From positions 12,383,832 through 12,447,831 of the forward strand of contig CAJINV010000001.1 of NCBI GenBank assembly GCA_905178155.1: 64,000 nucleotides of DNA, in the 5' to 3' direction. How positions within the stretch are numbered: the stretch's first letter is position 1; each line of letters opens with the position of its first letter. The notes beneath the pieces were generated by a model. The model was not told the origin of the DNA, did not search any database, and saw only the letters and a list, made by a program, of their open reading frames with translations. This stretch comes from Amoebophrya sp. A120 (Eukaryota; Protista; Dinoflagellata). Made by a program: the position numbers and the translations under genes. Of this stretch, positions 10,664 to 62,329 are shown piece after piece.

Positions 10664-10689
10664 ACATCAAACAAGTTTTTTCAGCAAAT

Positions 10690-11880: not shown

Positions 11881-11954
11881 TTTTCGCTCTATGGTGTAGG
11901 TAGAAGGCAGGTAGGTTTACTCAATGATGGAGTTCCTATTGTTCATGTCGGTTG

Positions 11955-30822: not shown

Positions 30823-32103
30823 CTAGTCTAACATCACGCAATCGACGCTGTCCGACTCTTCATCCACGAGATCTATCACTTCTGCAGCACTTCCGTCATC
30901 CACAGACGCACCGTCGTAGTTTCGCACTCTGACATCAAGACCGTCCCCCATCTTCTCGTGCCACAGCTCTTGGATCCGTTTGATGTGCAGCGCCACTTTC
31001 GGATCTGTAGTGATCATGTCCATGGTCATGTCGTGCGCCTTCTTCTCTAGCTTTTCCAGCGACAGGGCGCCCGGTTCCGCGGTTTCGCGCAGCTTTGTTC
31101 GGTTTCGTCCCTGCAGCGCGTCCACGTATGCGAGCATACACGGCGCCGAAGATTCCCGGTCGTTTCGGAGCCTCGCTGCCTCCTTGAAGCACCAGAGCCG
31201 CCTGTTGTCTGCGCTCCAGTACTCTCCGCCCCAGAGGTAGACCACCAAGGGAGGGAAGTCCGCCGGTGTCAACAGGCCTGCCGCCAAAGCGTCCCGCGTT
31301 GTTCGGATGGGGGTCCCGTCCGTGAATTCCGGGGAGATCGCAGCCTGCGAGTAGCGTAGCCGCTTGACTGCCAGCATGGTTCGCTTGGAGTTGAGCCCAA
31401 CCGACCGCGCCGGGGTCCTTTTGCGTTTGTGCACGGCGTTGGTCTTTATCGCGAGCAACTCCGTCGGGAAGACCTCGAAGGGGATTTTGAGCAGCGGCAT
31501 CAACATAGTGCAGAGCGACTTCGTCTTGTTCGGCGCCAGGCCCTTCTTCCGCTGCCGCTCGCTCCGAAGCTCCATTTTTCGCTCGTGTTTGATCTCCCGC
31601 ATACAGATTCGGTAGACCTCCATCGCAATTGCACAATTGCGCTCGCGCGTCTTCTCACCCTCCGCTGCACCCGAACTACTTCCCGAAGTTGCCTCTTCAA
31701 GCGGCCAAAAGTCGGCGAGCTCCCGCACGCCGAGAGACTGCCGCAGCGTCTTCTGAAGGTTGTCGAAGAATGCCCCGCCGCTGCCATGCCCGAGCTGTCG
31801 GTAGCGTTTGTATGCTCGGAGGTTATTCATGATCGCCACGGTGCGCGCTTTCTCGGGGCCGCTTGCGGTTGACGAACTGGATCCGCGGGAATGCTCGACA
31901 TCGGGCGCGTCCAGAGCAGGGTCCTCACCGTCGGCAGACAGGTCCTGATAAAAGTCGTTTTCCAGAGGTCCGTCCGCGTCGCTGCCTTCGTCGCGCCCGA
32001 AAACTGCCATGTTGTCGAAAACTTCCTGGTCCTCCAAATCGCAGTCAGGATCGTCTTCCGCTTCGGGTATGCAAGTGAAAAAGTAAGCACGTACCTGAGT
32101 CAT
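30823..32103 (-). CDS. Protein with a ParB/sulfiredoxin-like (DNRRL-type) domain; 5' end uncertain
   Basis: LRYSQAAISPEFTDG...FPPLVVYLWGGEYWSADNRRLWCFKEA resembles the ParB-like pattern of rfsQ..Is..F..G followed by s.DNRRL. Confidence 0.65.
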   Translation of the reverse strand: MTQVRAYFFTCIPEAEDDPDCDLEDQEVFDNMAVFGRDEGSDADGPLENDFYQDLSADGEDPALDAPDVEHSRGSSSSTASGPEKARTVAIMNNLRAYKRYRQLGHGSGGAFFDNLQKTLRQSLGVRELADFWPLEEATSGSSSGAAEGEKTRERNCAIAMEVYRICMREIKHERKMELRSERQRKKGLAPNKTKSLCTMLMPLLKIPFEVFPTELLAIKTNAVHKRKRTPARSVGLNSKRTMLAVKRLRYSQAAISPEFTDGTPIRTTRDALAAGLLTPADFPPLVVYLWGGEYWSADNRRLWCFKEAARLRNDRESSAPCMLAYVDALQGRNRTKLRETAEPGALSLEKLEKKAHDMTMDMITTDPKVALHIKRIQELWHEKMGDGLDVRVRNYDGASVDDGSAAEVIDLVDEESDSVDCVMLD

Positions 32104-32335
32104 GCACGGAGTTATCTGCTATATGCGCCAGCAGCTGCTTCTTGAGGTTGAGTGGCAATCTATTTTTTCATCGTGGGTCTGAAGTTTTTAATTTTGATTC
32201 TCGCATGGAGCGGTCGCGAGAAATACACAACCTCGCTCAAATAATGTAAGTAGTGACGCACTCCTTCATTCTGGAAAGAATTACGGCGAGAGCGAGATAC
32301 TGAAGCACTATACAACTCAGGCACAAACGGGCTTT

Positions 32336-35300
32336 TCATGGCATAGCCGTGTCCACGCGGCTCGGCTCATCCTTGTCCCCTGCACTGGAAAATCCCACCT
32401 GCTCCGGGGCCGCAACGTCGACCAAATCCGGATCTTCAGCTAGGAGATCAGACACAACTTCACGAATGTCTCGGTTGGTTAACTTGTGCGCCCGAGCACT
32501 TTTCTCGACGTCCTTCGTTCGCATGCTCAGCGTTCCGTGCCCCTTCATCGCCGCGGCATCCAGAATTTTTTGTGCTCTAGCCCGATCGCCCGTCCGCCAC
32601 GAGGCCAGCGGAACCGCTCCCAGTGACTGCTCTGCCCGCAACAGCTCGCCCAGGCGCCTTGGCGACAAATTTCCCTTAATCATGTCCAGAACAACGCGGG
32701 TCAAGCAAGCTAGTCCGATTGAGCGCGGATGCGCAGGACCGAATTTCTCGACGACGTTGAACCACCGCGCAGTGACTTTCCCCGTTATGCCGCTGGACGT
32801 CTGCAACCCACCACCGTGTTGCGTATACCGTCGAAACACAGCAAGCATGACGTCCTCAAGCAGATTGTCGTCGTCAAGTTCCCCAACGGTGCGCGCCAAG
32901 TTCTCTTCTATCCCGAAGTCTTCGTCGAGCGTGCTGTTGCTACCAAGCAATGGGGCCCTGTTTTTGGAACTCGTCGCGCCACTACTGGAGGAGGACGCGG
33001 TAGAGCCAACCTGCTGCGCAAGCGCGCCGGGCTTTTTTTCTTCTTCCCCCGCGTCAGCCGCGTCGCCTTTTCTGGTGCTGTCCGTCAGAAAGTCTTCGAT
33101 CTGCTTCACACGTCCAGCCCAGTAATCGTCCCCGAGGTTCCAGCAGCGGATCTGGCTCCTGCCGTTCTTGCCCAAGAGAGTCAGGAGGTCGGTATTCCAG
33201 CAGACCCAGTTCAGGTCGCCATCGTAGTCGCCTCCGCGGAATTCATCCGCGCCCCCGCGCTCACAGTTGTCCGGGTGCGCCGCAAGGATCAGCAAGCTTA
33301 TCAAGTGCAAATATGTCTGGGCCCGGATCTGGAGGAAGGTTGCATGATCATTTGTCAAGATAAATCTTTTTTGATTTTGCATGCAAAAATTTGCATGAAA
33401 ACATTTGTCAAGATAAATATACCGCCCGGGCTTCGCATAGCCTAACGGGCCTGCCATGCGCGCTCGAGCACCGCAAGTGATGGCTCCGCGTCCGCAAATG
33501 CAAGTCCTATCCTGCATGACACACGTTGCCTCGGGACGCCACAAAGTGCGTGGCTTTTGCTGCTCACAAATTACAGACTTCTGGGACTTTTGTGTCTCCC
33601 AGACCGAACACGCAAAACACTTCCTCCAGGCCCAGACATATTTGCGTCTGATATGGTTTTTACCCGTGCCAAACCGACGCGCAAGCTCCTCCTTGTAGAC
33701 AAAGCGGACCAGCTGCAGGTCCGTGGGCAACACCGCCGGCGTCGCTCCCACGACGCACCAGCCGCGGAGGTACTTATCTTGTCCGTCCTTGTCGCGAAAA
33801 ACGAGCTGGGCCTGTCTCCTCTTTAGAAGTCTACCGGTGTAGTCGTAGGCGACGTGGAAGAAACCGCTGTCCTTCATTTTGTACTGCGGCTTTTTCCGCA
33901 GCCTCTCCGCCTCCTGGAGCTGACTCTTTGCCTCTACTGTCCACAAATGAATCTGCGACGTCTCTTCAAATCCGGCATCTTTCAACCGACTCAGGAACTC
34001 GTGCTGCCCGCGCTGCGCATCCCCCGCCGGAAAGGGGTTTCGGTCGCCCGCTGCCTTGGCCTGCGCCGCCTTTGCCTTGCGCCTCTCCTCGTGCACGGCC
34101 TTTCTTTCCTTCTGCAAAGCCCGGGCGTACCGTGCGTCATCCGCCCCCGCGTCGTGGAACTGCAGTGGCCGGGCCCCGGGTTTGACATCTTTGTCCCGGT
34201 TTCGTTCGGCCGCCGATCCAGGCTTCGGATCATCGTGCTCGTGCCCTCCGTCTTCTTCGCCGCTCCGCAAGGCTGCATCCACGCTTTCTGCTGGGGCCGC
34301 TGCATCTCCGTCTCGATCTGCAGAGGAGGACTCGGACGATGCCTCGCTGGAAGCAGAGCCTGAATCCGATGAAGTTTCCGTTTCTGTGTCGCTTTGTTCG
34401 GCAGAGGAGCTTGCTAGCATATCTTCCGGATCGTCCTCGTTTGTGTCTCTTTGCTCCTTTGCTCCAGTGCCTGCGCCGTGAGCGCTGGAGCTGCTGGCCG
34501 TCGCACCATCCGGATGCTGAGCGCCCTGATTGTAGTTGCAGTTGTACTTGTAGCAGTTAATTGGCACGAAGCATCAGTTTTCCGCTAGACAGTGACAGAG
34601 ACCACGATCTTGAAGTATACTACCTGTATCTACCTACTTAAAACAATGAGTAAACAACGATGTCGACACTTTGGCTTTTTGTTTTTTGTAGATCGATGCA
34701 AAAATGAAAAAACTTTGTATCTCTACCTGTTTCCGCAGAGCCACCGGAGAAGAGTCCAGGGACAGACCGGGGTCGTGAAGCTGCAGCGTGTCTTCCTTCT
34801 TCCGCTTCTTCGGGTTTTCCGCTGGAGCATCGAGAGTCGTCGCGGCCTTCTTGCTTTGATTGCCGATCTTCTTCTCCAGGTCTACGAAGTGGAACTTTTC
34901 CTCCCAATGGCTGTCGTGCAGCCCCTCCAAAAACTGCAAGAACGCCTCCCGCTTTGCGTGGTTCACAACAAACTCGCCCGCCTGCGCCTCATCTGCAGAT
35001 GCCTGGAAAAGCTGCACTGCGTCGCCCGCCACAACTGCAGACCTTTCCCCCTTCTCCGGCGTCTGTGGCTCCGGGGTTTCGCCGCTTTTCTTTTTGGCGG
35101 GGCCCGCGCTCTTCTGCTGCTTTTTTGCCCTTGTCTTCCGCTCCTTTTTGGAAAGCCTTCGCTTCCCCCACATTGCCTTCTTGCTGTCTTTCTGCGTGCG
35201 CGGACCGGTGTCGACGTCTTTCTTCGGCAAAGTCTCCCTCCATTCCCAGGCACAGAGAAACTCGAGAAGTGGCAGGAACTGCGCATTGAGCGTTCGATCC

Positions 35301-38300
35301 CAGCTCTGGCGGTCGGTTCTAACAATCCCCTGCGGACAGACCTCGAGCGTCAGCTGCGATTTCTCCAGCCTGCTTTCGTCGCGCGACCCCTTGCACATCG
35401 AAGAGCGAAAAAGGATGCTGGGCGCCGAGTCGTTGTCTGGTATGGCAGTATCCAAGAATAGCATTCCTTTTTGCACCCCTGTCCGAATTTGGATGGCCGT
35501 CAGCCAGCTCCCGGGCTCGAAATATATGCCGCAGGTGCTCTCGAGGTGTGCCTGGACGCGGGCCATCTGGCCGATCGAAATGCGCCCGCCACCGTCGGAA
35601 AGAATTTGACCTGTTGCAAGTGGAGGCGCCATAGTGAATTGCTATTGGCATGACGACAATGCTGCATTGATATGGCTTACCACAGATCACAAATTAGAAA
35701 GCATGGCCGAAAGGAAATGTCTTGTAATGCAAAGGCCACAAATGAAATCTAAGAAGCTGACTCCCATCCAACTCGTCGCGTGCCGCTCACTATGCATTTG
35801 TTTCTAACCAAAAAGAAGAAAAGTCTGCTAATCTACCAATACCTGTCTTCTTCGCCCGAATGTCGTCTTCGATTGTCCGCTGGGAGGCCGGAACGACGGC
35901 AGTGCGGAATGTTCGAGATGACAACAGCTGAAAGCGCGCCACGAACTTCCCCGGCTTTAGACCGCGAACGTCGGCCGATGACATGGGCATATGCCAGGTC
36001 CGGAGTTTCGTCGCAACTGTACTAGGTTCCTCCCCGCTGAAATACTCGACGAAGATCAGCTTTTTGTTGGCGTCGAACTCGTGGTGGGGGCACAGAAAAA
36101 CGAAGGTCCGGGGACCGCTCCGCAGCTTGCCGCGAGCGTCCTCGCTGGCCGTCGTGGTGAGCAGCTTCACTGTTCGCGGGAACTCGTCGATCCGCCTTGT
36201 GCGCCGAAGCATCGCTTTTACCGCCACACCCCCCGCGGTCGCTCCCTCTTCCTCGTCGGCAGCTCCGCCGTCCCCTGCTCCACCCCCCTCCGCCGCCTCG
36301 CTTGCGCCGGGCTCCGCGTCCTTCTTTGGTCGTATCCGTTGGAAAAACGTCCCCAACCCATTGCGATTCTTCTTCTTATCAGGCAACAGAACTCGGCTTG
36401 TTTTTAGTCTTACGAATACAAACTCAGGCTTAACTTTTCATTCTCAATCGATGGAAGTAAAAGTAGTTCACACGAGCTGACACACGACTCGGCGTCACAT
36501 TTCGCGGCGCTTCAGCGAGCGCTTCTGCGAGGCAGCACTGCCCTGGCCTTCAGTTCGCTTTCCAGCGGCATTTCCCCCAAAACCAGGGGGAATATTTAAA
36601 TTTTAACTCGCCCGCAGGGCGAAAACATGGCGTTTTTGAAAATTTTGCGATAGTTCCCCACCCTCTGGGGCTGTAGAATTTGGCTTTAAACGAGCCGAAA
36701 CCGAGCTCGCGGGCGGCCGCTCACGGCCTCGACTCTCATGTCAGCTCGAGCTTCTGCATCCTTCAGCAAAGGGGCGATGGTGCGCAATAGCATTGCAGCT
36801 GCCAGCAAGTGGCGGGCCTTCGCCCTGCGAGAGCCTCCTCTGAAGCATTTTCACTCTTCTGAGCATTTTTTTCTCTTTCCTTGGGCGGTATCTCCCGCCC
36901 ATTTCTTTTCGCCGAATGTGCGGGCGTGGGAGCTCTGCCCCACGGCTACTTCTAAGCACTTTGCGATGAGAAAACTTCCCACATGACGGATTTTCCGCCG
37001 GCAGCATCTACTTTGATGTGATGTTGCGGCAGGGCAGGGCTCTGGCCAAGATCCTTCCGTCCGAATGCGACTGTGTGTCATGCGCAGCTCTATACTGACG
37101 AGCGCCTTCATTCTAAAAAATGGAGCTTGCAAGCTTGCAAGCAAGTTGTCATGGGGTGGGGGCGTTTTTCCACTGGATAGGTCGGCCCCGCTTTTTCGGA
37201 ACCGCGCGGCCCGGTGGCTTCTTGTTCTTCTGTACCTGGGGGCTCTCTCCGCGGCCTGCGGCCCGCACGTGCTTGGCGCCGCCGTTTTCATCGTAGTATT
37301 CCGGATTTGGCTCCCATACGTATGGCGGCACCCGCACGGTGATCGGCTGCCGTCCCTCCTCCTGGCACTTTTCAAGTAGCCGGGTCCCGAGCGTTGACGG
37401 CCCGCCGCCTCTGCCGCTTCGGTTGTGCCCGTAGTCCAAGACAGAGCCGGCGTATGGAAGGAAAATCTGTGAGCGCGTTTGCTCCTTGAAATTTTGCTTT
37501 TCTCGATGAACGAAAGCGAATCTGAAATCAAAATGAGACAAGCTTAACAAGCCGGCCTTGGTAAGCGCCCACTTTCTTTCAAGAACTACGGCAATGCATG
37601 TACAAACAAAATTATGAAAGTCGTCTTGTTGTTACCCCGACAAAAAAGCGCGACGCGCTTGTTGGACTAGTAATTCTAATTTCAGCAACACAAATAAACT
37701 CCTCCACGTAACAGGCCAAAACGACACTCCCAATGCAAAACGCGCATGAAATAGAGATAGGACTCGCAAGCACTTCCGGCATGACAGTAAAAGTCCTTTC
37801 TTTGCGTAGTCGTTGCAGCTACGTGCACAGTCCACGGTAGCAGGAGCACTCACAGATTGACAGTGCTAATTTGGTTCACGGTACATAACACCACAAAGAT
37901 TTCACCAAGCACTTGCTTTTCCACTATCGGTCTTGGCCGCGATTGCTTCCACTCTGGCCCCTTGCCCGCGTTCTTGCCGTCCCCCCGCGGCCTCTGCTCC
38001 TCTTGTTGGTCGGTCTGTGTCTCCTGCGCCGCGTCTTTGCTGTTGTTCTTCTGCCTCTTTGCCTCGGCTCGGGCTCGTGCGCGCTCGTCTGCCTGTGCGA
38101 GGTCCGGCAACAAGTCCGCCAGCGGGGTGATGTCCGAAGACGCCGATGACTGCTGCGGGGGCATTGAGGACGAAGAGGACTGCGCCCATCCTCTTTGTTG
38201 GCGCGGGTCCGCCCGTGCGTACGCACTCCCCTCCATGGCAACCGGGTCGAACAGCCGGCCAGTGTCGACGTGCGTCGGCACGCAGCGGCGGTCGCCGAAC

Positions 38301-38473
38301 GCATTCCGCCACTCGTACGGAGACGGAAGGCAGTAAGTGAACGCGCGGAAGTGCTGGTCGCTCTTCAGGAGGGGTCTCCATGTCGACGAATCCAGTAGGC
38401 AGGTGGCAAAATCCCGACTATAGCGTCCCTCCTGGTCCGCCAGCTGTTGCACCTTGTAGCTTAAGTCACACAT
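32336..38473 (-). CDS. Eukaryotic RNAi-type RNA-dependent RNA polymerase (~1386 aa) with an AT-hook. Exons ~38473-37854, 37521-37180, 36327-35843, 35610-34727, 34525-33654, 33293-32336
   Basis: Ordered RdRP motifs KFVARFQLLSSRT, LSDGGGRIS, AIQIRTGVQKGML, RSSMCK, LNAQFLPLL, TPAVLPTDLQ, catalytic GGDYDGD, VLDMIKG. Three GT-AG introns (37522-37853, 35611-35842, 34526-34726) plus two introners give a 4161-nt frame. Confidence 0.88.
33299..33653. mobile_element. Introner A3 (355 bp), stop-free in the RdRP frame, with decayed direct repeat
   Basis: TATCAAGTGCAAATATGTCTGGGCC ... GGCCCAGACATATTTGCGTCTGATA; sense-strand flanks AACCA and AGCTT; element plus 5 nt = 360 nt keeps frame. Confidence 0.85.
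36333..37179. mobile_element. Introner B4, long copy (847 bp)
   Basis: TATCCGTTGGAAAAACGTCCCCAACCCA ... TGGGGTGGGGGCGTTTTTCCACTGGATA; direct repeat GGTCG at 36328-36332 and 37180-37184; removal restores KKRGRPKKDAEP. Confidence 0.9.
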
Positions 38474-39532
38474 ATTTACATTGTCATGTAATATCCCAGG
38501 GGGAAATTCAAGTTTTGAAATAGCACAAACACCAACATATTAATGATTGCGTCGATAAAGCCATTTGTGTTTGTCGCCAAGGAATAAAATCGAAATAAAT
38601 TGTTTGTCGCTTAAACGACAAATCATGACCGACCAAAGGTAAAAGTCTCGCGCTGTTTTATCAATGCCGTTGCTACCGTCGGGCTTTCGTTTCTATTACT
38701 GAAAGACTTCAAAGCTTCCATATACTGGCGCGATAGTAGCGCAGCATATTGCTAAGTCGCTGCAAAAAAAATGAGCGGGCAGCAGGCCGATTGAGAGCAC
38801 ACAAGTAACGCCACCGCACGACCACATCACGACCGAGCGCAAATGAAAGCATCGGAGCGAAATACATCTACAACTTACTACTCGACGAGATCAGCGACTG
38901 ATTCCACCGCGGAATGCTCATCATCACCAACAAAGATAGAGGATCTTCACGCTGCCGCAAGAACGCTGATGTTGAGCGCATACCGAACATTGCCACTGCT
39001 TATTGATCACACTTGGAAAAGTCCTTGGCACAGCTTTCAGCTCGTCCACAGCTACTTCTCATAAAAATTGAACATGCTTTGGGCACTTGTCACAGAATCG
39101 AAAAAAGCACAAGAAGTGTGGCCTTGAATACACGCGCAGACTGCAGAAACGCCAATCTAGGGAGCCGGATACATACTCACGACCGATCAATCAGATTCCG
39201 AAGCCAAAACCAGACGAACACACACGCAAAAATCTTATCGGCACTATTCTCAAGGACTGCCACAGCCCCCAAGCTCTTCCATTCAATGCCGGTCGAAACA
39301 GATGAATCAAAAACAGTGTAGCTGACACGGAAGTCCGTCTCGATGTTTCGTGTTTGTTTCTGCAACTACATGGAGTGACTAGTAGTAGGACAAACTTTCA
39401 CTCGTTCTGAAACACACGAGGAAAGGGAAACATCCAACCAGAGAAAAGCTCCATCATGGATCATACATTGTTCCGCGAAAAAGCTTCCAAAAACTAAATC
39501 GTACATTAGCATTCAAATCACCGAGCAGACAT

Positions 39533-42500: not shown

Positions 42501-44782
42501 TAGTTGCACAGATGCCGCGCTAGCTCGTCGCTGTGTTCGTCGATGAGACGGTGCGTTGGGCTGTTCCCAACTACATTATTTGCACCCGCGGTACTCCCAC
42601 TGGCGCATTGGTCGCCGAACGGCTGGTATTTTTTCGTGCAGAAGCGACAGAGCGCTTCACGGCCAACAAAGATCTTGAAGTTCTTGCCGAACCCCGACAT
42701 CACCACGTACACACGCATGTCGAACTTGTAGCCGTTGAGCAGGAGCGGGTTGTCCAAATATTCTTGCAACACCAGGTTGCTACGACTGACGCTCCGCACC
42801 TGCAAATCCCGCATGCGGGAGAGCAGAAAGATCCCCTGTCCCTGCGACGAATCTTCGGGCTTGCAAATCAAAGTTTTCGTCGGGTTATCCTCTAAAAACT
42901 TCTCCACCAAGGGGCGGTCTTCGGGGTAGACCCAGGTTTTCGGGATGTGCTCGTGCAACACGAACGGCCGGCGCAAATAGTTGGTCGCCTGCTCTGTCGG
43001 CGTACTGATATTCGCATGGAAGTTGTCGCGGGTTAAGTTCGCAAACAACTTGTTCAGGGGATTCGTGTTCTGCTGGCTGTATTGGCCCGGCCGAGTTGGG
43101 AAATTCGAGTTCGTCAAAAGAACGGGGGTTTTGTTTCTCGCAAGCATTGCACTAGAAGACAGGTTGTCGTCGAACGTGATTTTCTGAGTCGAGTCATCCC
43201 CAGCTTCTGGATCAACACGAGCGAAATCTTTTGTCTGGGTCAGAATTTCGCCCTCCTCTACTGCTGCGCCTACTTGACGAGGCAAGCGGTTTCGCTTTGG
43301 CGAGACCAGGGCCGCACACGTCCGCGACATGAGATTCGTGCCACTTGGTCCGGACTGCGCTCCTGCCGCAGTTTCATTTTGGTATAGCCTTTTCTTCACC
43401 TCGCGATTAACGGGTGACAGTGTGGCTGCGGCGTTTACTTCCGTTACAGAAGAAGTTTTCCCCGAAGTAGACGTAGCCACATCGACATCCGTAGGACTGG
43501 GGTTCAAACTCGGTAATGGGGGCAGCCGCACCTTGTTCTGCTTCGCCGCTTTTTGTTCCGGATTGTTCCGCACGATCCCGAACGCCGCGTCGAGTTGCAT
43601 CGCTGCAGAGCTCGTCAGATGGCTGGGTTGCTCCAGCAAGCTGCTCTCTGACGGTTCCTGAAAAGACGTGATCGACTTCAGTAAACCGACGGCTTTCTGG
43701 ACCTTGTTCTTTTTCTTCTTGCCCTTGCGCTTTTTCTTCTTCTTGAAGTTGCTTGCGGTCCCGCCCATCATCTTCACCTCGTCCTCGTAAAACGTCGTTT
43801 GCATATTAGCACTTGTGGTGGCATCAAGAGGGCTCCTCGTTGACCATCCGGGCGCTTCCTGATTGTCCTCCTCCGATTCGTCGTTCTGTTCCTGATCGAG
43901 GTCTTCTCCAATAGGATTCTGATTATCCCCGCTCAGAACATCAGCGTTGTCATCGTTGTAGAATGCTGCAAAAGGTGCAGCGCTTGCGTCGACGTCCGGG
44001 GAAGCTTGCTGTACATGATCCGCGTCGTGGTCTTCGTCGCCCGACAAAAGATCAGGATCCTCATCCTCATCCCCAATACCGTCTGCAGCTTCATTCGTAG
44101 TTTCACCGTCGACTGCGACTCCGCCTGGTCGCCCTGCCACAGCCGCCTCTAGAGTGCCACTCGTCGTGTTTCCTATTCTCTTGCTCTTCAGCGCCGACGG
44201 ACCCCGGGGCGCGGGCTCCAAGGCGAGCAGCTGATCGCCCAGACGCCGGAAATACCGGGCCATATTCACCTTTGCACACATCTCGGCCATGCCCGGGTAG
44301 CGCGTGATCCAGCAACCGCCGCCAGCTTCCTCGAGCACCGGGAGAAACTCGGATTGCTGCAGGATGAAGCACACACGATTGATGCCATTGTTGGTCCTAT
44401 TCCCGTTCTTGTTCCTCCGCCGGGACGGCGAGCTGTCCGGCGAAAGCGAGCGGTCGTCTTGTGGAGTATTATCGTGGTCTACTGGAGTGGAAGCGGTTGA
44501 AATTAGGCCGCTCGGAGGAAAAGTTGGCGTCAGTGTGTCGACGAAGCCCCATTTCACCGTTGACAGGAGAGGAGCAGCGGGATGCTCCTGCAGCTGTCGG
44601 TGTTGAGTTCTGCTTTTTCTATTCCTTTTCAAGGCGGTCTCGTTGGTTCGCGTTTCTTCAAGCGCAACTGCTCTCCGGATAAGGTCCTGCCACTTGCCGG
44701 GGCGTGGACTCAGCCACACAGACCACTTCTCTTCTTCGCCGGTAGGCAAGTAAGGGGCCGCGGGATAAGGGGCTTGCGCCAT
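39533..44782 (-). CDS. Tubulin-tyrosine ligase-like (TTLL) protein, probable polyglutamylase, 1749 aa, intronless
   Basis: IPKTWVYP, ICKPEDSSQGQGIFL, LQEYLDNPLLLNGYKFDMRVYVV, HLCNYSIQK, LLGFDLMLD, LLEVNSGPSL. Confidence 0.92.
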   Translation of the reverse strand: MAQAPYPAAPYLPTGEEEKWSVWLSPRPGKWQDLIRRAVALEETRTNETALKRNRKSRTQHRQLQEHPAAPLLSTVKWGFVDTLTPTFPPSGLISTASTPVDHDNTPQDDRSLSPDSSPSRRRNKNGNRTNNGINRVCFILQQSEFLPVLEEAGGGCWITRYPGMAEMCAKVNMARYFRRLGDQLLALEPAPRGPSALKSKRIGNTTSGTLEAAVAGRPGGVAVDGETTNEAADGIGDEDEDPDLLSGDEDHDADHVQQASPDVDASAAPFAAFYNDDNADVLSGDNQNPIGEDLDQEQNDESEEDNQEAPGWSTRSPLDATTSANMQTTFYEDEVKMMGGTASNFKKKKKRKGKKKKNKVQKAVGLLKSITSFQEPSESSLLEQPSHLTSSAAMQLDAAFGIVRNNPEQKAAKQNKVRLPPLPSLNPSPTDVDVATSTSGKTSSVTEVNAAATLSPVNREVKKRLYQNETAAGAQSGPSGTNLMSRTCAALVSPKRNRLPRQVGAAVEEGEILTQTKDFARVDPEAGDDSTQKITFDDNLSSSAMLARNKTPVLLTNSNFPTRPGQYSQQNTNPLNKLFANLTRDNFHANISTPTEQATNYLRRPFVLHEHIPKTWVYPEDRPLVEKFLEDNPTKTLICKPEDSSQGQGIFLLSRMRDLQVRSVSRSNLVLQEYLDNPLLLNGYKFDMRVYVVMSGFGKNFKIFVGREALCRFCTKKYQPFGDQCASGSTAGANNVVGNSPTHRLIDEHSDELARHLCNYSIQKKCDGYVRAGEQPQQPVGVVPASPTAVATENVDTDAAQGMAEANDGTSDATPAEVDEIKQGRTHLTTVRTTDVQISGADVREKDAGEHQVGHAAVEPPNDATVPDETPGTKSNSAAESEDPSEISRDNIIKRTNNARTPFTDHFPEAPEGSTTEDDKVNTASFYTLTDDDPDRYDPHEIMEEINSFPANAPQIHDLHAPVDRPPSRNAFAANPGARNRTTTIAMQDFAKKQRDERERLRQRAETVAGAAASTAANGVGVNQLGIAVRSPKDKWNAKFGNMNRSQDNELEVQQLRTNNFKSTFSPPSTLGAAAGGNTTSALSCNLSVGTASPSQGATSDQPHKWTRTASGNIVARSSEARQNGSFEKQASSTLADRKFVRKHGTTSSLFSSPSGGTNNSSSNSSSPTQVGVFCLDDLNNNTGNARQSKWKASETITAGNGMMGGSPGGGATASGSSPNSLHGKNRSQHMKPDYSGWLREVEALEKQCTKQLARNGRAEIVGAGSKHSGIYSGAELQQQRGGIHLFAPERASSNGVCSSTSEEEVQIDDGTGEVAVVHTDKKFSAGLEEEDDDLIATPCSPVVQKPKVVDVDVKNHQRKNLCGTSAAPTSDRNCKVPPATSGAKKLDTSGAPAAAGSDPGATMSFEALSSDPLASKRLLSVVLSQIEQEFPDTFNREKFYEQLSDICGQWAEAVHPYLLATYRPFSCDKNAKHRSFYEKNEARCAQLLGFDLMLDADMKMHLLEVNSGPSLNMDDVIPVEYSELPNGEPDYRCFCGEHPLPHRHVPSPIDRFVKTNVMSGLFQVIRSTEQSLQQHGKVDSRRGVSTSTAETQLHSTNVMSKINSHGRNNSSYLTNHRPELFRKEPFIEIERDYRFRSLLRKFEMWFSCKVNNTYEGMSQSASYQTSSFQLRRAFAKLKSLDTSDLDLEYTKMKREFVQPYVKSPWLHARFEILDLVPVLQAIKAKKRFRSVERLLECLLGGNSGRGK

Positions 44783-45758
44783 CTTCGTTCAAGGCAGACA
44801 CACGAAAAAGTAGATGGCAAAAGGAAATAATAAAACCACCGAACGTTGGCTGCGGAGGATAAACTTCTAGAGATGTTCCGCCTATTCGGCACAGGCAGGA
44901 GGTTGCCGTTCCAAACTTTCCCTCAGGATAAAATTAGAGATTCGCATGGCCATCTATGTATGTTTCGAGGGTAGTAGAAGCATCATCATGCCGCGACACT
45001 GCAGAGCCGTCTTCAAAAAAAGTTGTCGGAAACGAAAACTGCACTCGGCCGTTTGAAAATGATTCAGAAAAAAAAGGAAGGAAACTCGAGGACTATTGTA
45101 CTGCACTTGTTCAACAACCTGGACCTGCATAAATACCATCATTCAAAACGGCAGCAAATTGAGATGCATTTCTTCGGCAAAGACGAGAAGAAACGAACTC
45201 GAAGTATAGAAATAATGGGCACGATGGAAGAACGTCACGCAGGAACGATGGATGTGATGGGTGTTGTAACGGAAGAACGATCAAACCGGAAAGTATGAAC
45301 GACAGAAAAACTACGAAGATGCGGTGGCATTCAGAACGACGACGAGCCACAGGCATGTCACTGAAAACCAAGTCGCTGTTTTGATACGAGAAATAACTCC
45401 ATGCTGGTGCAATGCGGTCATTTACTATCTATTCGCGCAGATCGGGTCAAAAATTCAATAGTCTATCTCTGCAGTTCAGCAGTTTAATCGTGTTGCTCGT
45501 GCGGCAACTCCAGCACATGAATCAATGTGGTGTTGACATTGCTATGTGTAAATGGGAATCTTCTAAACAATTTGCGCTCCTCCGCAACATGCGCAGTCAA
45601 TACTTTCATTTTTATTTTGTTTTTGATTCTCCTACTAAACAGGCACTGATGTTTCGAAACTTCGAGAACTTCTAGCACGATTGCTTAGAGATAAAGACAC
45701 TAAAATGAGGAAAAACTGAAATTCGAAATTACCTAAAGGCTGCTGATGACACCACCCC

Positions 45759-47964
45759 TCACAGGTACCCCTCTCGCAGCCAGCGGTGCTTGCAGTGGTT
45801 GCGCATGATGGAAAGCAGCGTGTGCCGCTTCGTGGAGTCGACGACCTGAAACGCGAGCAGCGTACTGGGTGACGACCGGACACTTTGGAGCTTCCTGGAT
45901 ATTACCGAGTCGAAGATCTGGCCGCGCAAGCGACGCTGGCGCGTTAGATCCTTCTCGTCCTCCTCCCCGCTGCCGTCGTTGCAAAGCAGTGCCACGTATG
46001 CACTGCAAATATGATGTCTAGGTCTGGAAGAGTGTCTCTTGCAGGTTTTCCATGACCCTTGAGGTCCGGAATGCGGGACCTAGCATGACAGAGTCTGTGA
46101 GGTCTCTGCCATGCCTATGCTGCATGAGAAACTCCCTCCCAGCTTGGTCGAAAGTGGACAGCTTGTGGCACTCATGCAACACAGAGTTTTGCATGATTCG
46201 GATTTAGCATGACAAGTTGCAATCTTCCAGACCCAGACACTTTTGCAATCCATACCACGCGCACCTCGAAAAAGCAGGGGTTGTCCGGTGCCGGCGGCCG
46301 TGCTGGATATTACAGTGAAAAGTGCCCCCCACCCCTCAAATTGCAAAAATTTGTGATGCGGAGTTTCCAAATGAAAACTTTTTGTCATGCATGAAACGAG
46401 TATGAATCTTTCTGATGCGGAGTCTAGGCGTGTATCGCATCGCTTGCATGACAAGCGCCGCTCTTGCTGGGGTCTTTTGCAATACAAATTTTCGCTATTC
46501 ACGGTTGGAAACCTGTGATGCTGATAGGTGCAAGAGGGCGAATGTTTCATTTGGAAAGGTTTGCAATACAAATGCTTTCAAGTTCGGGGGTGGGGGGATT
46601 TTTCCTTTTGATACTGGATTGGCGTTGTTGCGAGGACTTCTCCCAGTAGCTGTGGTGGACGAAGAATTTGTACTACTTCTCAACTTCGCCCTCTCTTTTT
46701 CCGGCACCCGCACGTCGCAGGAGAGCAGAATTGCATTTCCAACCAAATCGATTGTCGACACGTAATTTCCAAACCGGACCTTCTCCTCCAGTAAGGGCTC
46801 CAGCACAGGCTGGTTTGCACTTTTTTGATCTGCAGAACTGCTCGTTGCTGCTTCCTGTTGAGACGATGAATCTCCGAGATCTAGCTCCACAGTGTACTCT
46901 TCCTCTGTGTCCAAGGTTTTGCACGCGGTTTCATAGAGCTCCCGCAGCGTGCTGCCACAAGCCGCCCAAGGCCCACTGCGCGGATCCAGCGACGCGACAC
47001 TGTTGCCTTCGGAAAGGGAAGCGAGAAAGCTAGCGAATTTCGACACTCGCACCGCTGTGATTGTCGGTTTCGTGGTACAACTACCGGAGCATGCGCTTTT
47101 ACTCGAAATCTCTTGCTGCGGGGGTGAAAGGCGCTGCTTATTTGAAAATCCAGCGAGATGTGACGCAGTGTGTAGTCCTGGCTCACCCTCGCACAGGCTG
47201 CTCGCTTTCTTCAAGCGACCAGACTGCAACCCGTCCTTGTCAGCAACGGTAGGCCCCGCAGAATCAGCATCGTCGACCACGGGGTCGTGTGCCAAGCTGA
47301 AGATCTCTGAGTGAGCATTGTTCGTGAGCAGGACGTAGGCCGGTCGGTGCTCCTTAAACTCTGTCTCGATGAATTCGTCGTAACCATTGCGTAATGGTAA
47401 GTGTTCCACATCATCTAGATCTTCTTCAGCCCCCTCTTCTCGCGGACTCGCCCCATCTTCAGGGTTTGTGCAAAAGGAAGTGGATGCGGACAAGGATCCT
47501 CGGCTGCTGGGCGCCGTGGTTGGCGATAGCGCGCAGTCCGCGAGCTTGCACTGCTCGTCGTGGAGGATGGTCCCGCACGGAAGCATGAATCGCAGGTCCG
47601 TGCCACGCACGTGCAAGTCCTGTCGCAACTCGCCCAACGTGGCGTCCGGCCGCGCCCTGCAGAGAAGTGTTCCTCCCGGAGACACGATGGGGACTGCATC
47701 TACTTCGTAGTTGAGGTGAAACTTATGCTGATCATCCCCGTCGGAGGCCTGATGGAGATCCGGGACATCGTCCAGGGGCTTCGGAATCTCGCGAGCAGTG
47801 CCGGCCCTGCTGGAGGAGGGCTCCCCCTGCGGCACAGTTGCACGGGCGGACAATAGCGCAATGCGGACGGACTCCACGGTTGTCGCGCTTGTAGAGATAA
47901 GGACGAAGAGTTTGAAAACCTTCCGCGCAAGGTAACCGGCATGCTGTTGCCGCAACGCCGCCAT
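45759..47964 (-). CDS. Hypothetical protein with two introners flanking a micro-exon
   Basis: ORF 46495-47964 joins a short exon and ORF 45759-45995 in frame after removing both elements: NANPARPPAPDNPCFFEVRVALLCNDG. Confidence 0.75.
45997..46254. mobile_element. Introner A4 (258 bp)
   Basis: TATGCACTGCAAATATGATGTCTAGGTCTGGAAG ... CTTCCAGACCCAGACACTTTTGCAATCCATA; direct repeat CCACG at 45992-45996 and 46255-46259; interior similar to 57490-57751. Confidence 0.92.
46308..46613. mobile_element. Introner B5 (306 bp)
   Basis: TATTACAGTGAAAAGTGCCCCCCACCCC ... GGGGGTGGGGGGATTTTTCCTTTTGATA; direct repeat CTGGA at 46303-46307 and 46614-46618. Confidence 0.93.
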
Positions 47965-48485
47965 TGTTGCACTCGCAAAGTGTAGTCGTCACAACATAGG
48001 TGATGAAGCATGGAAAATCATAAGTGAGAACGTATTCAAGTGAAATAGCGTTCAAGTTTAAGTTTCGCAGACAAGAAAAACACCCAGAGCTTTATCATTA
48101 TGTACGCAGCAATTTCAGGACGTTCTGAAGCGGCATCAAGACCACCTCTTTTTCGGTGTCCTACGACGGCGGAAAAATTGTGTTTTAGTGTTGCGGCGAG
48201 ATAAAACTCGATAAACAAGTTGCTTGTTTTTACTCTAGCCGATCCAACGCTGGACGACCGCGACGTGTATCTGAGGGCAACGAACCGCGAGCGAGATCAA
48301 GAAGGCGTCGTCGCGAGAACACCAGCAACACCCCTGTAGCTCTACATACGCACAGGAAAATCTGGTCGTCCCATCGTTTCATGCACAGCGAAACGGTACT
48401 CGAGGAGGAAAAAAAATATGTTAGTTTGGAGAAAAAAAATATTGTGCTTGCAGCCATTTTTTCCCGACTACAACGACCAGCCTGT

Positions 48486-50963
48486 TCAAGAACCCTTTCC
48501 GTCTTTGATGCGTTCCGTCAATCGGTCAAGCTTCGCCCGCAGTCCTTTATTCGCGAGGAGCAGCTCGGTGCGGGTTGCCAGCAACGACGTGTCGGCGAGA
48601 CAAGCCGGATCTTCGTCGTCCGTTTCCTCCTGGCGCTTCTCCTCCGCTTCGACACGCTGGCGCTGTAAGTCCAGCGGGAGCTCCGCAAACTCATCCTCGG
48701 TCAACGCAGTGGGGCGATCTGAAAAGCCAGTTTCATCTCTGGTGAGAAAGCAGCAAGCTGCGAGGGAGTGGGAGCTTCGTACACGTACTTACAACAAAAT
48801 TCTTTTCATGGAACAAGCCCAAGAGAAACAAAACTACCAGAAGTTGTATTTCCAGTAACATCAAGATGCCACCGAGACGCAATGAATTATTTGATGTTGA
48901 TGTTCCGTTGTACCTGCCAAGGTTGCAATTTTCAGCGCGGTGTCTCGCAGTCGCTGCTCCTCCTGCTCGGTGGTCTGCCTCTGACTGTCTCGCCGCTTCG
49001 CTTCCTCAATGACCTTCTCGGATTTTTCCAGCATGGGCGCTTCGGCGGAGGCAATCGCCGATTTCGACCTCCTGACCGCCTGCGCAACCAACGCCTTCCC
49101 TTGCTCCGCGCGCTTTGACAGCACGTCCGCAAAATGCGGCGCATCCTGGATGGTCCTGTCGGTTGGAGTTACGTTGGAAGGTGACTTGCGCTCTCGAGGC
49201 GAGGTTTTTTGTTTGCGCGCGGCCGCTTTCGCATCGTCCCCGGGAACTGCTGTTGGTTTTGCTTTTTCACCTTCCGACGCGGCTGTCGGGGGCTGCGCTA
49301 AATTATCCGGTGTCGCGAGTACACTCTGCGACAAACGCTTTGCGAATTCTTCCAACGACAAAGGCTTCTTTCTCTTCACCGCCGGTGCAACTGGATCACG
49401 CCCTTGTGCTTCCATACCGCTGTGAGTTTGCGCTACCTCGTCCTCTCCGCTATCGATTCCGTTTCTGGGCACTCCCGGCAGAGAATCCTCGTCGTCGGAA
49501 GCAGACTCTCCAGTGCCGATTCTAGCATTCGTCCGGTCATCGAACTGTTTCGCAAATTTATCAAACTCGTCGACACTCTCCGACCACCACGCATGGTTCA
49601 ACATCTCCCCGTCAGCAAGATGCTTTTGCGCGACATCAGCACTTGCTCTCTCTCCTGGCTCCTCTTCCGCCCTCGCATGATACGTCTTCGCCAGCTCTTT
49701 CATCTCATTCCCCAGCTCCTGCTTCCGGAAAAACTCCCGCAGCTTCTTCTTGTGAATCAGGTCCTCCTTGTGCAGAACCTGTTTTCCCAGCGCGACCATG
49801 TTCGCAAAAGATGTTGGTGGCTGCTGCTCCCGCTCGCTGAATTCACTCATGCTGCTTTCGGCGCTGTCAAAGGTACGAGTGTTGTCCGCCTGGTCAATAC
49901 TGCTAGTAGAAGTACTAGTTGATATTTTCTCATCCTCCTGCACCCCTTCGGCTCCAGCGAGCGCTCTTTCCAAAATTCGTTGCGCTCGACTCATGTCGTC
50001 ACCGGAATTCTTTGAGGAGAAATGCGCTTCCTGCAAGAAGGAAAATGGTTCATTTTCCCGAACAGACTCTACTCCTTGTGCTTTTCCTTTCCCCGCTGGG
50101 GTTGGGGTAGATTTTTTGGCATTTTCGTCAATGACCTTGAGCAACTTCAAATTTTCCCGTGCGACCTCGCGGTTCTGCTTAGACCAGAAGTCCACCAGCG
50201 CCGTCTGCGGAAGTACATTTTGCTGTGCCGAAGGGCACGTCCGGTACAGCAGCTGTTGGTGACGCAGACCCCAGAAAGCCCGCTGAAAATCCACTGCCGT
50301 GACCCGCTGCTGGTGGTCCACCGCCCCACCTGCTTTCATCTCCTTCAGCAGCTTCTTTTGCCCGGGTGCTGCTCCCGCAGATCCTTTGCCTTTCACTCCC
50401 GTGGCAGTAGTGGCTGTCTTTTCCATCATTCTGGGTTGCAGCAGTGCAGCCTTCCGTCCGTCACGCGCACTGCCGGCGCACAGACGCGAAGCAATTTCGT
50501 CCACCGAGAAGTCCCGCAGCAGCAGTTCTTCCTGACGAGAAGACAATCGCTGTTCATCTTGTTGACCCGTGCTTTCAACTCCGATTTTCCGTAAACGCGC
50601 TACTGTTGCGTCGCGGCATTCCTGCGCTGACATAGACCGCACGCCCTGGTCTTGTCCGTATTCCCCCTGGTTGTAGACGCGGAGCAACAAGGAGCGCATC
50701 CGGGAGGACAGCGATACCTGCTGTTTCTTCGCATTCTTACTATCCCCCCGTTGTACTGACGCGGAAGCCACCGCGTTCCAGAAGGCAGCACCCTCATCGC
50801 GACCGACTTTTGCGTCACTCGCCTCTGCAGCTGCGGGCGAAAAGAGCAGGATCTTCGCGACGGAAAAAAAAGAAAACCAAAACCGGCAAGAACGCCCCAC
50901 CCCCGGCGACCACAATTCTCGCCGAGGGGCGACCATGCCACCCGAAATGGGTCTTTCGCTCAC
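48486..50963 (-). CDS. Hypothetical protein with an N-terminal hydrophobic (signal-like) segment and C-terminal coiled coil; one canonical intron (~48719-48913)
   Basis: The 700-aa ORF joins the 72-aa ORF through GCA G|GTACAA ... TTTTCAG|AT. Confidence 0.65.
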
Positions 50964-51721
50964 CCCCTCTGGCGCTGGTCGTGCTCCTCTCCACGACCTA
51001 CGATTAATTTTTCATCGAGAAAGAAAACAAGGTCAAAAGACAAATGATCAAAAAAGTGGAGATCTCTCAATTGGCAAAGTTTACTCATTCTGATCTGATC
51101 GGTCGGTCGGGAAAACGAAAACCTTCCGGAGGCACCGGGAACAACAAAAATAGTTATGCCTCGATTCAAAACTGATGCATTTCCCATGCAAAGCAATGGC
51201 AGCACGAGCCTAATACTTATATTTTTTCGATTGCAGCAAAATCAGAAAACCGTGCAAAAGATCAAAAGCAAACGCGAGTCATCATATATGAGTGTGGAGG
51301 TCTTGTATTCGTCCTCTTCACAAACATTCTTTCAATCAGCCCACAGTTAATATCACAAGAAAAATCATAATACTGATAAGCATGCACGCACTGTCATTCT
51401 GTCATATCCCTTGCCTTCGTAGTCGTATGTAGAAGAACTCTATTCTGTCATTAATTTGTTTTTTGTCATGAATCTATCCAAAACCGGGAATCTAACTCAT
51501 CAAAAATGCTGTCTTGTGTCATACGCATGATTTCAATCAATTTCAATAGTGCTCCAAGTTCTGACGCCAATAGGTCGATAGGAGAGCAGACGGAGACGCT
51601 CGCTTCAACAGTAGCGTAACTAGTACATCCTACTTGTCTACTTCTGCGGACGTCTTTCGACTGTCTTCCTCGAGTAAAAAAGCCGCGGTAGGAATAATCT
51701 CCGGTATGGACGCGTCGCTTC

Positions 51722-54700
51722 CTAATATTTTTTTTTCTGCGGCTTTATTTCCCCTGACGCTCGCAGCAGCGATACTTTGTCTTTCTTTCTTCGCTTGAGC
51801 TCCCCTTCGCCGCATCGGTGGCAGTAGTTGCAGGAGTCCGGAAAGTCACAACTTCTTGGCTTCCAGAACCAAGCGCAAGGCGAGCATCCTCTGCCGTGTA
51901 TCTTGTGTAAAAACGTCCCCACACCAGAGTCAAGATGAGGATCTCGCAACACAAATCGAGAAGTTTTGGGGGTCCAGCATGACAAGTTCGTCTAGGTATT
52001 GTAGTGCAGTTTAGCAAGCACAGCAGCAACACAAATCCATCTACTCATCCTGTCGACAGCATTGCAAAGCGCAAAACGTGAATGGAAATGCCTCTCATGT
52101 GTATGCGCATTACAAATCTTCCTGTAGCTGCAAATCTGCATGACAACTCTGGGGTGGGTACATTTTTACTCAGGATACCGTGAAAGATGGAGCCGCTGTT
52201 CATCGGCAGATTCGGCGTGGAAGCTGGCTGCTCCGCCGCTTGGGTCGACCACCCTGGCTCGGAAAAAATGGTGCTCGCAGAGGACGCTCCGGGGACAAAG
52301 CAGAGAGCGGAATCAGACAACTCCGAAGACAATCCACTGTCCTTGCGAGCCATCAGGCAACGATCTGCAGGATCAGCTACGGGTGGAGTGAGGTCCTCGG
52401 CAGGCGGCGCGGCGTCAGGCGCATCTGGTTTCTCCTGTTCGTCCAAGAGCTGCATCAGAAGTTGATGCTGCGTCTTGGGTGTCAGGACACTGCTTTCTGC
52501 GTTTTGAACCTCGGGCCTCCAAGCTTTCCGCTCGATCTCCTCTTTCGAGAGCTTGGTCCAGCACCTGCTACTCGAACTTCCTACTTTAGTGCTAGTTCTC
52601 GTCGTCCCGTCCGGAGGAACCTCTCCATCGCACTCATGCGCCGCACGACAATCATCGGTTTCGTGCGAACGGTTCCAGCCGTGCGTATTGCACCACTTTT
52701 TTTGCTTCTCCAGGAGGGCTGCGTTAAGCACCGCATCGCCGGACTTTGTGACAGGAACCCAAGAATTCCAATCCTTCTCGAAGGACTCGAAGACGGACAG
52801 AGACTGGTCGTCTTTGGTCTTCACAGAGATCAAACCTCTATCCGCATTCGCACCGGCCAAATTTCGTACCTCGGTAGTACCGCTACCACTTCCAGAATTA
52901 ATATCATGTTGCTGCGGGAGCAAGCTTCGACACTGTTTTTTGCTCTGCATCAGAGCGTTGCACGTGCGCAGCTGGTTCTCAAGCATGTACTTGAAGCACA
53001 AAAGGCTCTGTTCCTCATGAAACTTGGCTTGCTGTTGTAGTTGGTCTACTTGCCTCTGTACCTCCTCTGGAGTCGCAGCTCGGAGTCGAACACCATCGGT
53101 CCCGCCGCCGCTATGGTTCGTTATCTGGCTCTGCTCCATGGGAAAAAGCTCCCGTCCATCGTACGTCATCACTAGGTGCGACGAGGCCGGATCGCTCATC
53201 TCCTTTGCGCGCGTTCTGCTGTCTAAGCACGAGAGCTGGTCGTGTGAGGGAACGGCGTGCCCGCAGGCTGCTGGTCCCTGTTCCTTCCTCTCGTGAGTGT
53301 GAGACGTGGTGGGCCGCGCAGTGTTGCAGGTCTTTTTAGTTCCAGTGTCGCTGCCTTCTGCTGGTACGTCCCCAGTATCTGGCTGATTGGCTACTTCCGC
53401 GGCGCGTTTTTGCAGCGAGGCATCTTCCGCGACAGCTAGCTCCTCTTTCATGTCCACGTCTTCTAGCGTTCCGCCTTCCAAAGGCTCCTCAGCACACGTT
53501 GCAGGGAACGTGCTTTGCAGTTCCTGGCCGAGGCCGGTCGCGGTGAGGTCGTACCAGGATTGATGTTGAAATGCACTCGCTGCGAAAGAACTCGCGTTTG
53601 CGAAAGCTGCGCATGAGTTGTTCCACTCGGCTGACAATGGTGCGCCCCAGCCGTTAGGCAGCCAGGCGTTGTTTAGGGCGGCGGCCGCGTATCCAATGCG
53701 CATGCTGTTTTCCAGAACCTCCTGCGCCTGAGCATTCGGAAGGCTGCATTCTGCGGAATTACCTTGCAGAATCCAGGGTTGCATCGCGGCCGCGGCGGCG
53801 AGAAGGTGCGGATCCGAATATGTTGCTGGAGAAGCAGAACTACACGCCAGTTTGTCCTGATCTGGTTGTCCGGACAGGTCATCTGCATTCGCAAAGGAAG
53901 ACGTGCGGGTGCGGCCCCCTTGCCATTCTCCATCATCGTGTTCATCCCACGCTTTGTCCGTGTTTTTCTTCTTGCCGTTCTTGCGACCTTTCCACGTGGA
54001 TTTATGCGCGCCTGGTTCATCCCAATACCGGCCAGAAGTATAAGGAGCACTCCATTCCGCTTGTTCCCACCAGCTGTTTGAGGCGCCGAACGCGCGAGTG
54101 TTATCTGCGTAGTGCGTTTTTGGGTCTATTGCGCAGTGGCTAGCATGCACTCTATGAGAGAGTAGGAAAAGGAATTCAAAAAGGAGAATGTACTTCTTAA
54201 GTAGGCACAATAAACGCGACTTTGCGCTTCCTCGGTAACCAAAGCATGGTCGAAAAGTATCCGAAACAAACGGACCTAAAAATACCTTGCGCGACATTGA
54301 CATTCTGAGTCTTATCTTTCACTGGTACTTGTTTCGGTTTGCTTTTTTGTTTTTCCTTTTCCTCTTCCCGCGCCCACATTGCGTCCCAACTTAACTGCGC
54401 ATCGCTCGCAGTCCATGCTGGTTCAGCCCCGGTCAATCTTGGTGCTGCTGGAGCTGGTTTAAGAAAACTATTGTTTGCGCCCTTCGCTTTTTGATATGCC
54501 TGCTGCTCTCGTCTCATCTTATCTTTCTGCGATCTCAGAAGAGGATTTAAAATTGGTGCCGTCTTCTTTCCAACTCCGTCGTGCCTTCTAGAAGCCCGCC
54601 CTGTTATTGCGGCCGGCCCACTTTTTACGCGTTTCACGGCGTCGCGGTGAGCATCAGAATCTGATCCCGTTGCCGCCTCTTCCTTCCCCGAGCTTAGGCC

Positions 54701-55060
54701 GCTCGCGGTCGCCGCTCTGTGCACTACCGGCAAAAAGAAATCCTCGTCGTCTGACGCGTCTGCCCAAATTTGAACCCGGTTTTGGCCCTGCAAAGGTGTC
54801 CCCACTGACGCGAACGTCGAGTATGCAGGTGATACGGGTGTCGCGCCGTCGTCCTCCAGCGGCGCTACCGGCGAAAGCCCTTTCTTTATCGAAACACATG
54901 GTATCGGCTCGTGAAACAGTACCAAAACTGTGGAAAGCAAAATGTTGATGTTGCTTACCAAAATAGAAGATCCAGCCTCCGCTCGAGAGCTGCGTCTCGT
55001 CGAAGATGGAGCGCTTTGTAGTAGTACCATACTGTTCCTACTGCGTCTACAGTGCGACAT
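51722..55060 (-). CDS. C3H-type zinc-finger protein (finger of a type common in dinoflagellates); one canonical intron (54126-54285) and one introner
   Basis: Introner removal restores NSGSIFHGRGCSPCAWFWKPRSCDFPDSCNYCHRCGEGELKRRKKDK. Confidence 0.8.
51899..52177. mobile_element. Introner B6 (279 bp)
   Basis: TATCTTGTGTAAAAACGTCCCCACACCAGAGT ... ACTCTGGGGTGGGTACATTTTTACTCAGGATA; direct repeat CCGTG at 51894-51898 and 52178-52182; interior is a reverse-complement homologue of 14087-14365. Confidence 0.93.
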
Positions 55061-61720: not shown

Positions 61721-61977
61721 GATGATGTGAAGTTGATGCGAAAGATAAAGAAGTGTGCTTATTACAAAATACTGCTCTAGGTGGTGGAGCGAGTAGTCAA
61801 AAAACAGGCTTCATTTATCAAAACTACTTAAACGGCATCTCAAGTTTTTTGACTTTACGATCGCCTGCTCGTGTTTTTTTGGTTCAGGTGCTTTGATTGT
61901 TCCTTACCATCCATTTTTTGCCAAAAAAAAGGAAGGAGATCTTCAATAGGTATCGTGAAAAATGTCAGGTAATGTGT

Positions 61978-62027
61978 GATCTGGTTTTCGTTTGGATCTG
62001 GTTTTCGTTTGGATCTGGTTTTCGTTT
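61978..62027. repeat. Tandem repeat of GATCTGGTTTTCGTTTG, three copies
   Basis: Three consecutive 17-nt units, the last lacking its final G. Confidence 0.9.
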
Positions 62028-62329
62028 CTGCCGTGTTGAAGCGCACGGCTTGTGTTTGATCAAACCAATTTTTTCCTAACGTGTAAAGATCCGCTTTCTC
62101 TTCTTTTGATCCTTTTTGAAATCGCAAAGCAAATTCTGATCGTGTTCGCGTCTAGATAGGAGAACAGAGAACGCGCCGTCTGCTTCTAGACGAGAGTGAG
62201 CTACGTAGCCTCGGCCGGTCGATCAAAGTGGTTGTGCCTACTGCTGATACATAGATAAGTACATGCGTGCGTGGTAAACTTCAGGAGGCTGGTGCCAACA
62301 CTTCTTCACAGTTGGTCGGCAGCTACCTC

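Follow-up and report, generated by a model that had tools for sequence, protein, structure and literature searches.

The closest described introns are those of Amoebophrya sp. A120 itself. According to the parts of PMC7789003 covered here, its introners carry TAT-N7-AAA inverted repeats, are bordered by direct repeats of 3-5 nt, form hairpins, and have non-GT-AG ends. The same parts of that paper place the inverted repeats 1-5 nt from the splice sites, at variable positions, report that more than 60% of A120 introns are non-canonical, and leave both the borders and the removal mechanism open. Its Table S4 gives nine predominant non-canonical end pairs; every one of them has T at +2, possibly as a result of aligner choices. 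In the literature covered (subscription papers and the figures of PMC7789003 lie outside it), no fixed register was found for Amoebophrya introners; the covered parts of PMC12130899, PMC9860276, PMC11282704, and PMC11453091 give none either.

The TIR/TSD introners of Micromonas, Symbiodinium, Florenciella, and Aureococcus (PMC9860276 and PMC11282704, covered in part) are likewise non-autonomous, with splice boundaries inside the target-site duplication and the mRNA restored. Euglenid nonconventional introns (PMC11282704 and PMC12621601, also in part) likewise have non-canonical ends, terminal pairing at fixed offsets, and TSD-like repeats; the portions covered propose removal by a nuclease and a ligase for euglenid and diplonemid introns. 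The euglenid pairing joins CAG at +4 to +6 with CTG at -8 to -6, whereas the element described below has TAT at +2 to +4 and ATA at -7 to -5, and the lineages are unrelated.

This element is an introner in an RNA-dependent RNA polymerase (RdRP) gene, within the 64,000-nt stretch of A120 DNA analysed here (the window). It shares organism, arms, hairpin, and non-GT-AG ends with the introners of PMC7789003, as far as the covered sections describe them; it is one of a class already described, and its removal is built into the public A120 protein. What is new is the register, fixed by RNA at 1 nt on one side of the element and 4 nt on the other: this is proven at one junction, repeated at a second, and compatible with a third.

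The RdRP introner and its RNA junction

The introner body (33299-33653) is a 355-bp TAT...ATA element, recognized by its terminal complementarity and its predicted fold into a long hairpin. Read on the minus strand, from 33653 to 33299, its terminal bases are complementary at 24 of 28 positions, and none of 100 shuffles equalled its fold (z = -6.09). Both the 5′ arm (33626-33653, minus strand) and the 3′ arm (33299-33326, minus strand) contain the TAT-N7-AAA motif given in the covered part of PMC7789003; the 3′ arm ends in ATA, which by sequence and RNA occupies intron positions -7 to -5. The arms match many other copies. The interior has no match within the window, or among the matches listed for at least 170 loci of a second assembly (see below).

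On the minus strand, the upstream flank is AACCA (33654-33658), four bases of which are exonic while the fifth is intron +1; the downstream flank is AGCTT (33294-33298), with four bases at intron -4 to -1 and the fifth at exon +1. The two agree at 2 of 5 positions, a level that unrelated flanks reach in 27% of cases, so that the decayed repeat is deduced from the removed length (the element plus 5 nt, as a 5-bp duplication predicts) and is invisible in the letters. One contig of the DNA run X5 covers 32200-33762 with no differing letters and no gaps; the flanks are therefore no assembly error, and their non-identity, noted in the original prediction, holds in both the sequence and the X5 DNA.

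Let k be the number of nucleotides kept from the upstream copy of the 5-bp flank, with 5-k kept from the downstream copy. The original prediction had derived three readings across the joint, GKSLLIL (k = 0-1), GKNLLIL (k = 2-4), and GKNQLIL (k = 5), and the translations are exactly as it gave them. Guided by a general RdRP consensus, it had favoured k = 2-4, with N-L-L-I-L, had placed the cut inside the 5-bp duplication, and had proposed that the spliced letters be read. This was done: in transcript contigs of X1 and of X2, 33294 is followed directly by 33655, a single placement that skips 360 nt, with no letters that would fit either side, and their spliced letters, AACCTG (AACC+T), are compatible with k = 4 only. 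X1 and X2 are runs of one sample, and their RNA nature is presumed, supported by their loss of GT-AG introns; the joint is absent from the DNA run X5, where the element is intact. At the protein level, the public A120 protein has GKNLLIL and the ortholog P0122 has GGANLLIL, in agreement with the favoured reading.

The cuts at this intron (33295-33654, minus strand; 360 nt, A-TAT...ATA-AGCT) are thus proven to lie just outside the element, 1 nt from its TAT and 4 nt from its ATA. It starts with AT rather than GT or GC and ends with CT rather than AG, and so lacks canonical U2-type ends. Such dinucleotides are close by: there is a GT 9 nt and another 20 nt upstream, an AG stops 2 nt short of the 3′ end used, and there is one in-frame GT-AG pair. 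No joint among those listed for X1 and X2 uses these nearby sites. Because contigs lose rare variants, this shows preference rather than exclusivity, and minor registers would be hidden.

The intron is also in frame and free of stops; if retained, it would add 120 residues just upstream of the catalytic motif. Stop-free in-frame readings were obtained in 33 of 20,000 shuffles, and in 4 of 168 frames of real copies of at least 300 nt (second assembly, among the matches listed). The stop-free state is less odd against the real elements than against the shuffles, and is regarded as probably due to chance.

Decayed introns and the introner population

Within the window, 13 elements have clear arms; 12 of these have a perfect 5-bp repeat, the RdRP copy being the sole imperfect one among them. 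It had been described as the only copy with non-identical flanks, but this did not hold: RNA gives two further TAT...ATA introns in this gene, in a more advanced state of decay, both found without recourse to the motif. The first is a 440-nt intron (37449-37888, minus strand; T-TAT...ATA-CGCC, ends TT-CC), seen in a single X1 contig whose loose end at 37448 has letters that match from 37889; k = 4 is its sole compatible register. The second is a 283-nt intron (32064-32346, minus strand; C-TAT...ATA-CCCG, ends CT-CG), seen in both X1 and X2, whose contigs have loose ends at 32347, and read across by the public A120 protein P0121; it is compatible with k = 3 or 4. Their flanks are GGTGT/CGCCG (1 of 5 alike) and ACGGC/CCCGA (2 of 5 alike), respectively. 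Both have TAT at +2 to +4 and ATA at -7 to -5, a combination expected by chance at about 4e-4 per placement from the introns' own composition.

The pattern common to the three RdRP introns is N-TAT...ATA-NNNN; their arms and lengths differ. If k were uniform over 0-5, the chance of all three junctions fitting k = 4 would be 0.009, a figure drawn from three informative junctions in one gene and one sample, two of them known from loose-end letters and one of these from a single X1 contig. Since both additional introns also fit k = 4, the error about the only imperfect copy strengthens the conclusion that the cut lies inside the duplication. A scan of the window by motif and frame gave no convincing new case. 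The predicted folds of the two introns are weaker than that of the introner: z = -1.72 for the 283-nt intron, and z = +0.57 for the 440-nt intron, which has no predicted long hairpin. As far as folding predictions go, that the latter is cut at the same register speaks somewhat more for short sequence cues than for a long hairpin.

RNA covers 25.6 of the 64 kb, with five elements between 4354 and 14365 lying outside it. Positions 44001-64000 were compared with runs X1-X4 (one sample), for which 15 of 18 joints are listed: six are introners, six are canonical GT-AG introns, and three are cross-joins between repeat copies, which were excluded. The introners here all have perfect repeats, and the 15 listed joints include no further informative junction. 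Each of the six perfect-repeat introners represented among these joints leaves as the element plus 5 nt, and five of the six would shift the frame if retained; having perfect repeats at both sides, they agree with the rule without distinguishing between registers.

The original prediction had further expected every intron in the window to begin N-T-A-T. This stands for the introners under k = 4 and fails for the canonical introns, whose nine RNA-supported donors are GTAG, GTAT, GTAC, GTAT, GTAG, GTAC, GTTT, GTAT, and GTAA: GTA in eight of nine, GTAT in three.

Some perfect-repeat copies permit other readings. The introner at 62691-62948 can be read as GT-AG on the sense strand with k = 1, while for that at 57490-57751 an aligner can read GT-AG on the wrong strand; copies like these would inflate canonical and CT-AC counts. 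The families of both, and of the elements at 45997-46254 and 63503-63757, are also matched by RNA-run contigs with other flanks (loose ends), which implies that some copies are unspliced or lie in untranslated RNA.

A second public assembly with the same element families was surveyed by a pattern scan, which yielded at least 170 loci, 80 of them with full flanks. By arms only, at least 256 elements were found among the matches listed. Of these, 209 have a perfect 5-bp repeat, 30 agree at 4 of 5 positions, 9 at 3 of 5, and 8 at 2 or fewer, so that 47 of 256 (about 18%) are imperfect. As imperfect repeats report the register, the choice between spliceosome and nuclease (discussed below) is testable with existing RNA-seq. 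Membership in the IS3EU/GingerRoot DNA transposons, which have TA..TA termini like the RdRP introner (PMC10045372, covered in part), was considered and rejected: their duplication is usually 6 bp, while a 6-bp repeat was found in none of the 256 elements among the matches listed.

Elements were oriented by a coding model that was right for 14 of the 15 cases in the window, where part of the DNA had also served to train it. Among the matches listed, 118 oriented perfect copies have a repeat sequence close to random. Read with k = 4, 13 of these would end in AG, 36 would start with G, and 4 would be GT-AG; the A120-type element thus needs neither signal, whereas the TIR/TSD introners of the four genera named above carry or co-opt GT/GC and AG (PMC9860276 and PMC11282704, covered in part). 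Position 4 of the repeat is G in 45 of the 118 (p = 0.007, uncorrected), an excess matched by flanking positions. An apparent preference for C at intron -2 in the window (10 of 15 elements) was rejected, the 118 copies elsewhere having A31 C33 G29 T25 among the matches listed.

Two further approaches bear on the register in this assembly. A/T drift, used to ask which repeat copy is intronic, gave 16 cases for and 10 against (among the matches listed), showing no clear preference. For the imperfect copies, 54 exon pieces were scanned against proteins, and only two junctions fell within a matched domain (among the matches listed). One, in an SNF2 gene, reads KSEIS at k = 0-2 and KSEIF at k = 3-5. 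Two orthologs of 74-75% identity have EVF; as F is kept in both of these close orthologs, this copy needs k of at least 3, excluding k = 0-2. The motif is present in 3 of 10 proteins examined, the query's own among the three. For the other, in an enoyl-CoA hydratase gene, protein comparison yielded no register. The SNF2 protein piece of the second assembly has 74% identity with Amoebophrya A25.

How the introns might be recognized and removed

The best explanation overall, and one that seems probable, is a transposon-derived intron whose cuts lie 1 nt outside its TAT and 4 nt outside its ATA, with this spacing likely general for A120 introners and likely read by a relaxed form of the ordinary spliceosome. 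The odd introns of the RdRP gene are likely marked by position, not by GT and AG end letters.

The pathway would begin with TAT...ATA copies bordered, as the family displays, by a 5-bp duplication whose sequence is essentially arbitrary; a cut-and-paste transposase would make them. RNA would then lose the element plus 5 nt, as observed, an excision that restores the coding sequence at any insertion site. The cuts would fall inside the duplication at k = 4, as they do at two junctions and may do at the third, so that intron positions +1 and -4 to -1 would derive from the target site and be free. Quite probably, this register is fixed genome-wide, the published "variable" ends being largely a matter of ambiguous alignment over perfect repeats; the diversity of the ends may also come in part from target-site bases at +1 and -4 to -1. 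The end pairs in Table S4 of PMC7789003, as part of a source covered incompletely, are compatible with the k = 4 rule.

For the catalyst, a relaxed U2-type spliceosome has about an even chance of being correct. The element would contribute three bases of a donor-like site (U+2, A+3, and U+4), its arms would draw the ends together by pairing, and the 3′ cut would be set by distance from ATA and not by AG. The arm-pairing step is weakened by the 440-nt intron. Mimicry of GTAT by the introner start would be compatible with the prevalence of GTA among the canonical donors of the window. In the yeast P complex (10.1101/212811, covered in part), U+2 pairs with U6 A51, while G+1, G-1, and A-2 form pairs among themselves and with the branch A; by analogy, the introner may retain the base that is read by snRNA, and free those that are read by one another. 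The same covered part of that work reports impaired splicing whichever terminal base is changed, and the covered part of PMC7789003 reports that no U1 snRNA was found in A120, so that this step would need an altered spliceosome.

The same geometry might instead be executed without a spliceosome, by a structure-guided endonuclease whose cuts would lie 1 nt upstream and 4 nt downstream of the terminal stem, together with a ligase, as suspected for euglenid nonconventional introns. This, the main rival, is a tentative possibility. It fits the freedom of every terminal base, the strong fold of the RdRP intron, and the failure to detect U1 snRNA; the euglenid introns, too, have ends that pair at fixed offsets, and they are released as full-length circles, in the parts of PMC11282704 and PMC12621601 covered. 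However, the 440-nt intron has the same register with no predicted stem, the bases kept by the elements are those at +2 to +4 of A120's own canonical donors, and, within the covered part of PMC7789003, nearly all spliceosomal proteins are present in A120 and the repeat layout occurs in 15% of its canonical introns.

It is also conceivable, if rather unlikely, that the register is not fixed at all: k would differ among introns or families, and the three RdRP junctions would agree by chance or because they share a family. Variable positions are what the covered part of PMC7789003 describes, the junctions are only three and in one gene, and the element at 62691-62948 is equally readable as GT-AG at k = 1; against this stand the low probability of such agreement under a uniform k, the different arms and lengths of the three introns, and the exclusion of k = 0-2 by the SNF2 case. 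Least probable by far is a technical or editing effect, with the RdRP joint produced by reverse-transcriptase template switching over the hairpin, or by RNA editing of one base after splicing at k = 2-3 or 5. The strong hairpin would invite the former, editing near 2-4% of intron ends is deemed possible in the covered part of PMC7789003, and the retained form, in frame and stop-free, would still encode a protein. But the joint has no letters in common and hence no microhomology for switching, removal gives back exactly the sequence of the ortholog, retention would cause a frameshift at five of the six perfect-repeat copies for which a joint is listed, and under editing each of two junctions would need its own, different change.

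Under the preferred reading, a fixed spacing of 1 nt and 4 nt would turn "no clear signature" into a precise consensus, would explain how a transposon whose 5-bp target is arbitrary can turn into an intron wherever it inserts, and would show which bases the machinery can still read: U+2, A+3, U+4, and ATA at -7 to -5. With somewhat better than even probability, the "signal-less" introns of A120, which number in the tens of thousands, would then be one class with a strict grammar, N-UAU...AUA-NNNN, the first and the last four bases being free, and with the cuts measured from the transposon ends by a spliceosome lacking the G+1:G-1 and A-2 checks, or by a new nuclease-ligase system. If so, such measuring would let the element insert harmlessly at any coding position.

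The host gene and its surroundings

The host gene (30823-38539, minus strand) encodes a eukaryotic RNA-dependent RNA polymerase, by its match to Pfam PF05183 and the frame model. When six introns are taken out, it forms a single open frame of 1782 codons, stop to stop. These six are the three decayed or imperfect introners described above, two canonical GT-AG introns with RNA joints (34526-34726, donor GTAG, and 35611-35842, donor GTAT, both minus strand), and, by the rule only, an 847-bp introner with clear arms and a perfect 5-bp repeat (36333-37179, minus strand), whose removal as element plus 5 nt preserves the frame and which no listed contig spans. The catalytic motif, GGDYDGD (33215-33235, minus strand, from the translation), lies about 20 codons 3′ of the 33294/33655 junction. 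QDE-1 matches the region of this motif (E = 1.9e-05), with alignments to solved structures starting only past the junction. An initial search for RdRP homologs found none, and a scan of viral contigs gave no matches.

The exon at 32351-33292 is 100% identical to P0121, whose NCBI name is Amoebophrya sp. A120, which identifies the host at the protein level. P0121 is 984 aa long, and its start falls within the RdRP gene; RdRP-domain sequence extends upstream of that start, as indicated by RNA joints and frame continuity. As these give the 1782-codon frame, the annotation of P0121 is probably 5′-truncated.

A weak TAT...ATA element (38492-38735) is present at the 5′ end of the gene, outside the RNA coverage; it is complementary at 18 of 28 positions and is without a 5-bp repeat. 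Elsewhere in the window, a 1.4-kb stretch of about 25-30% GC (10600-12060) separates gene blocks of opposite orientation. Finally, over the RdRP exon segment 33733-33858, an X5 DNA contig of similar depth differs from the window at 7 listed places, which suggests that the genome contains another copy of this segment, diverged in sequence, at a different place.
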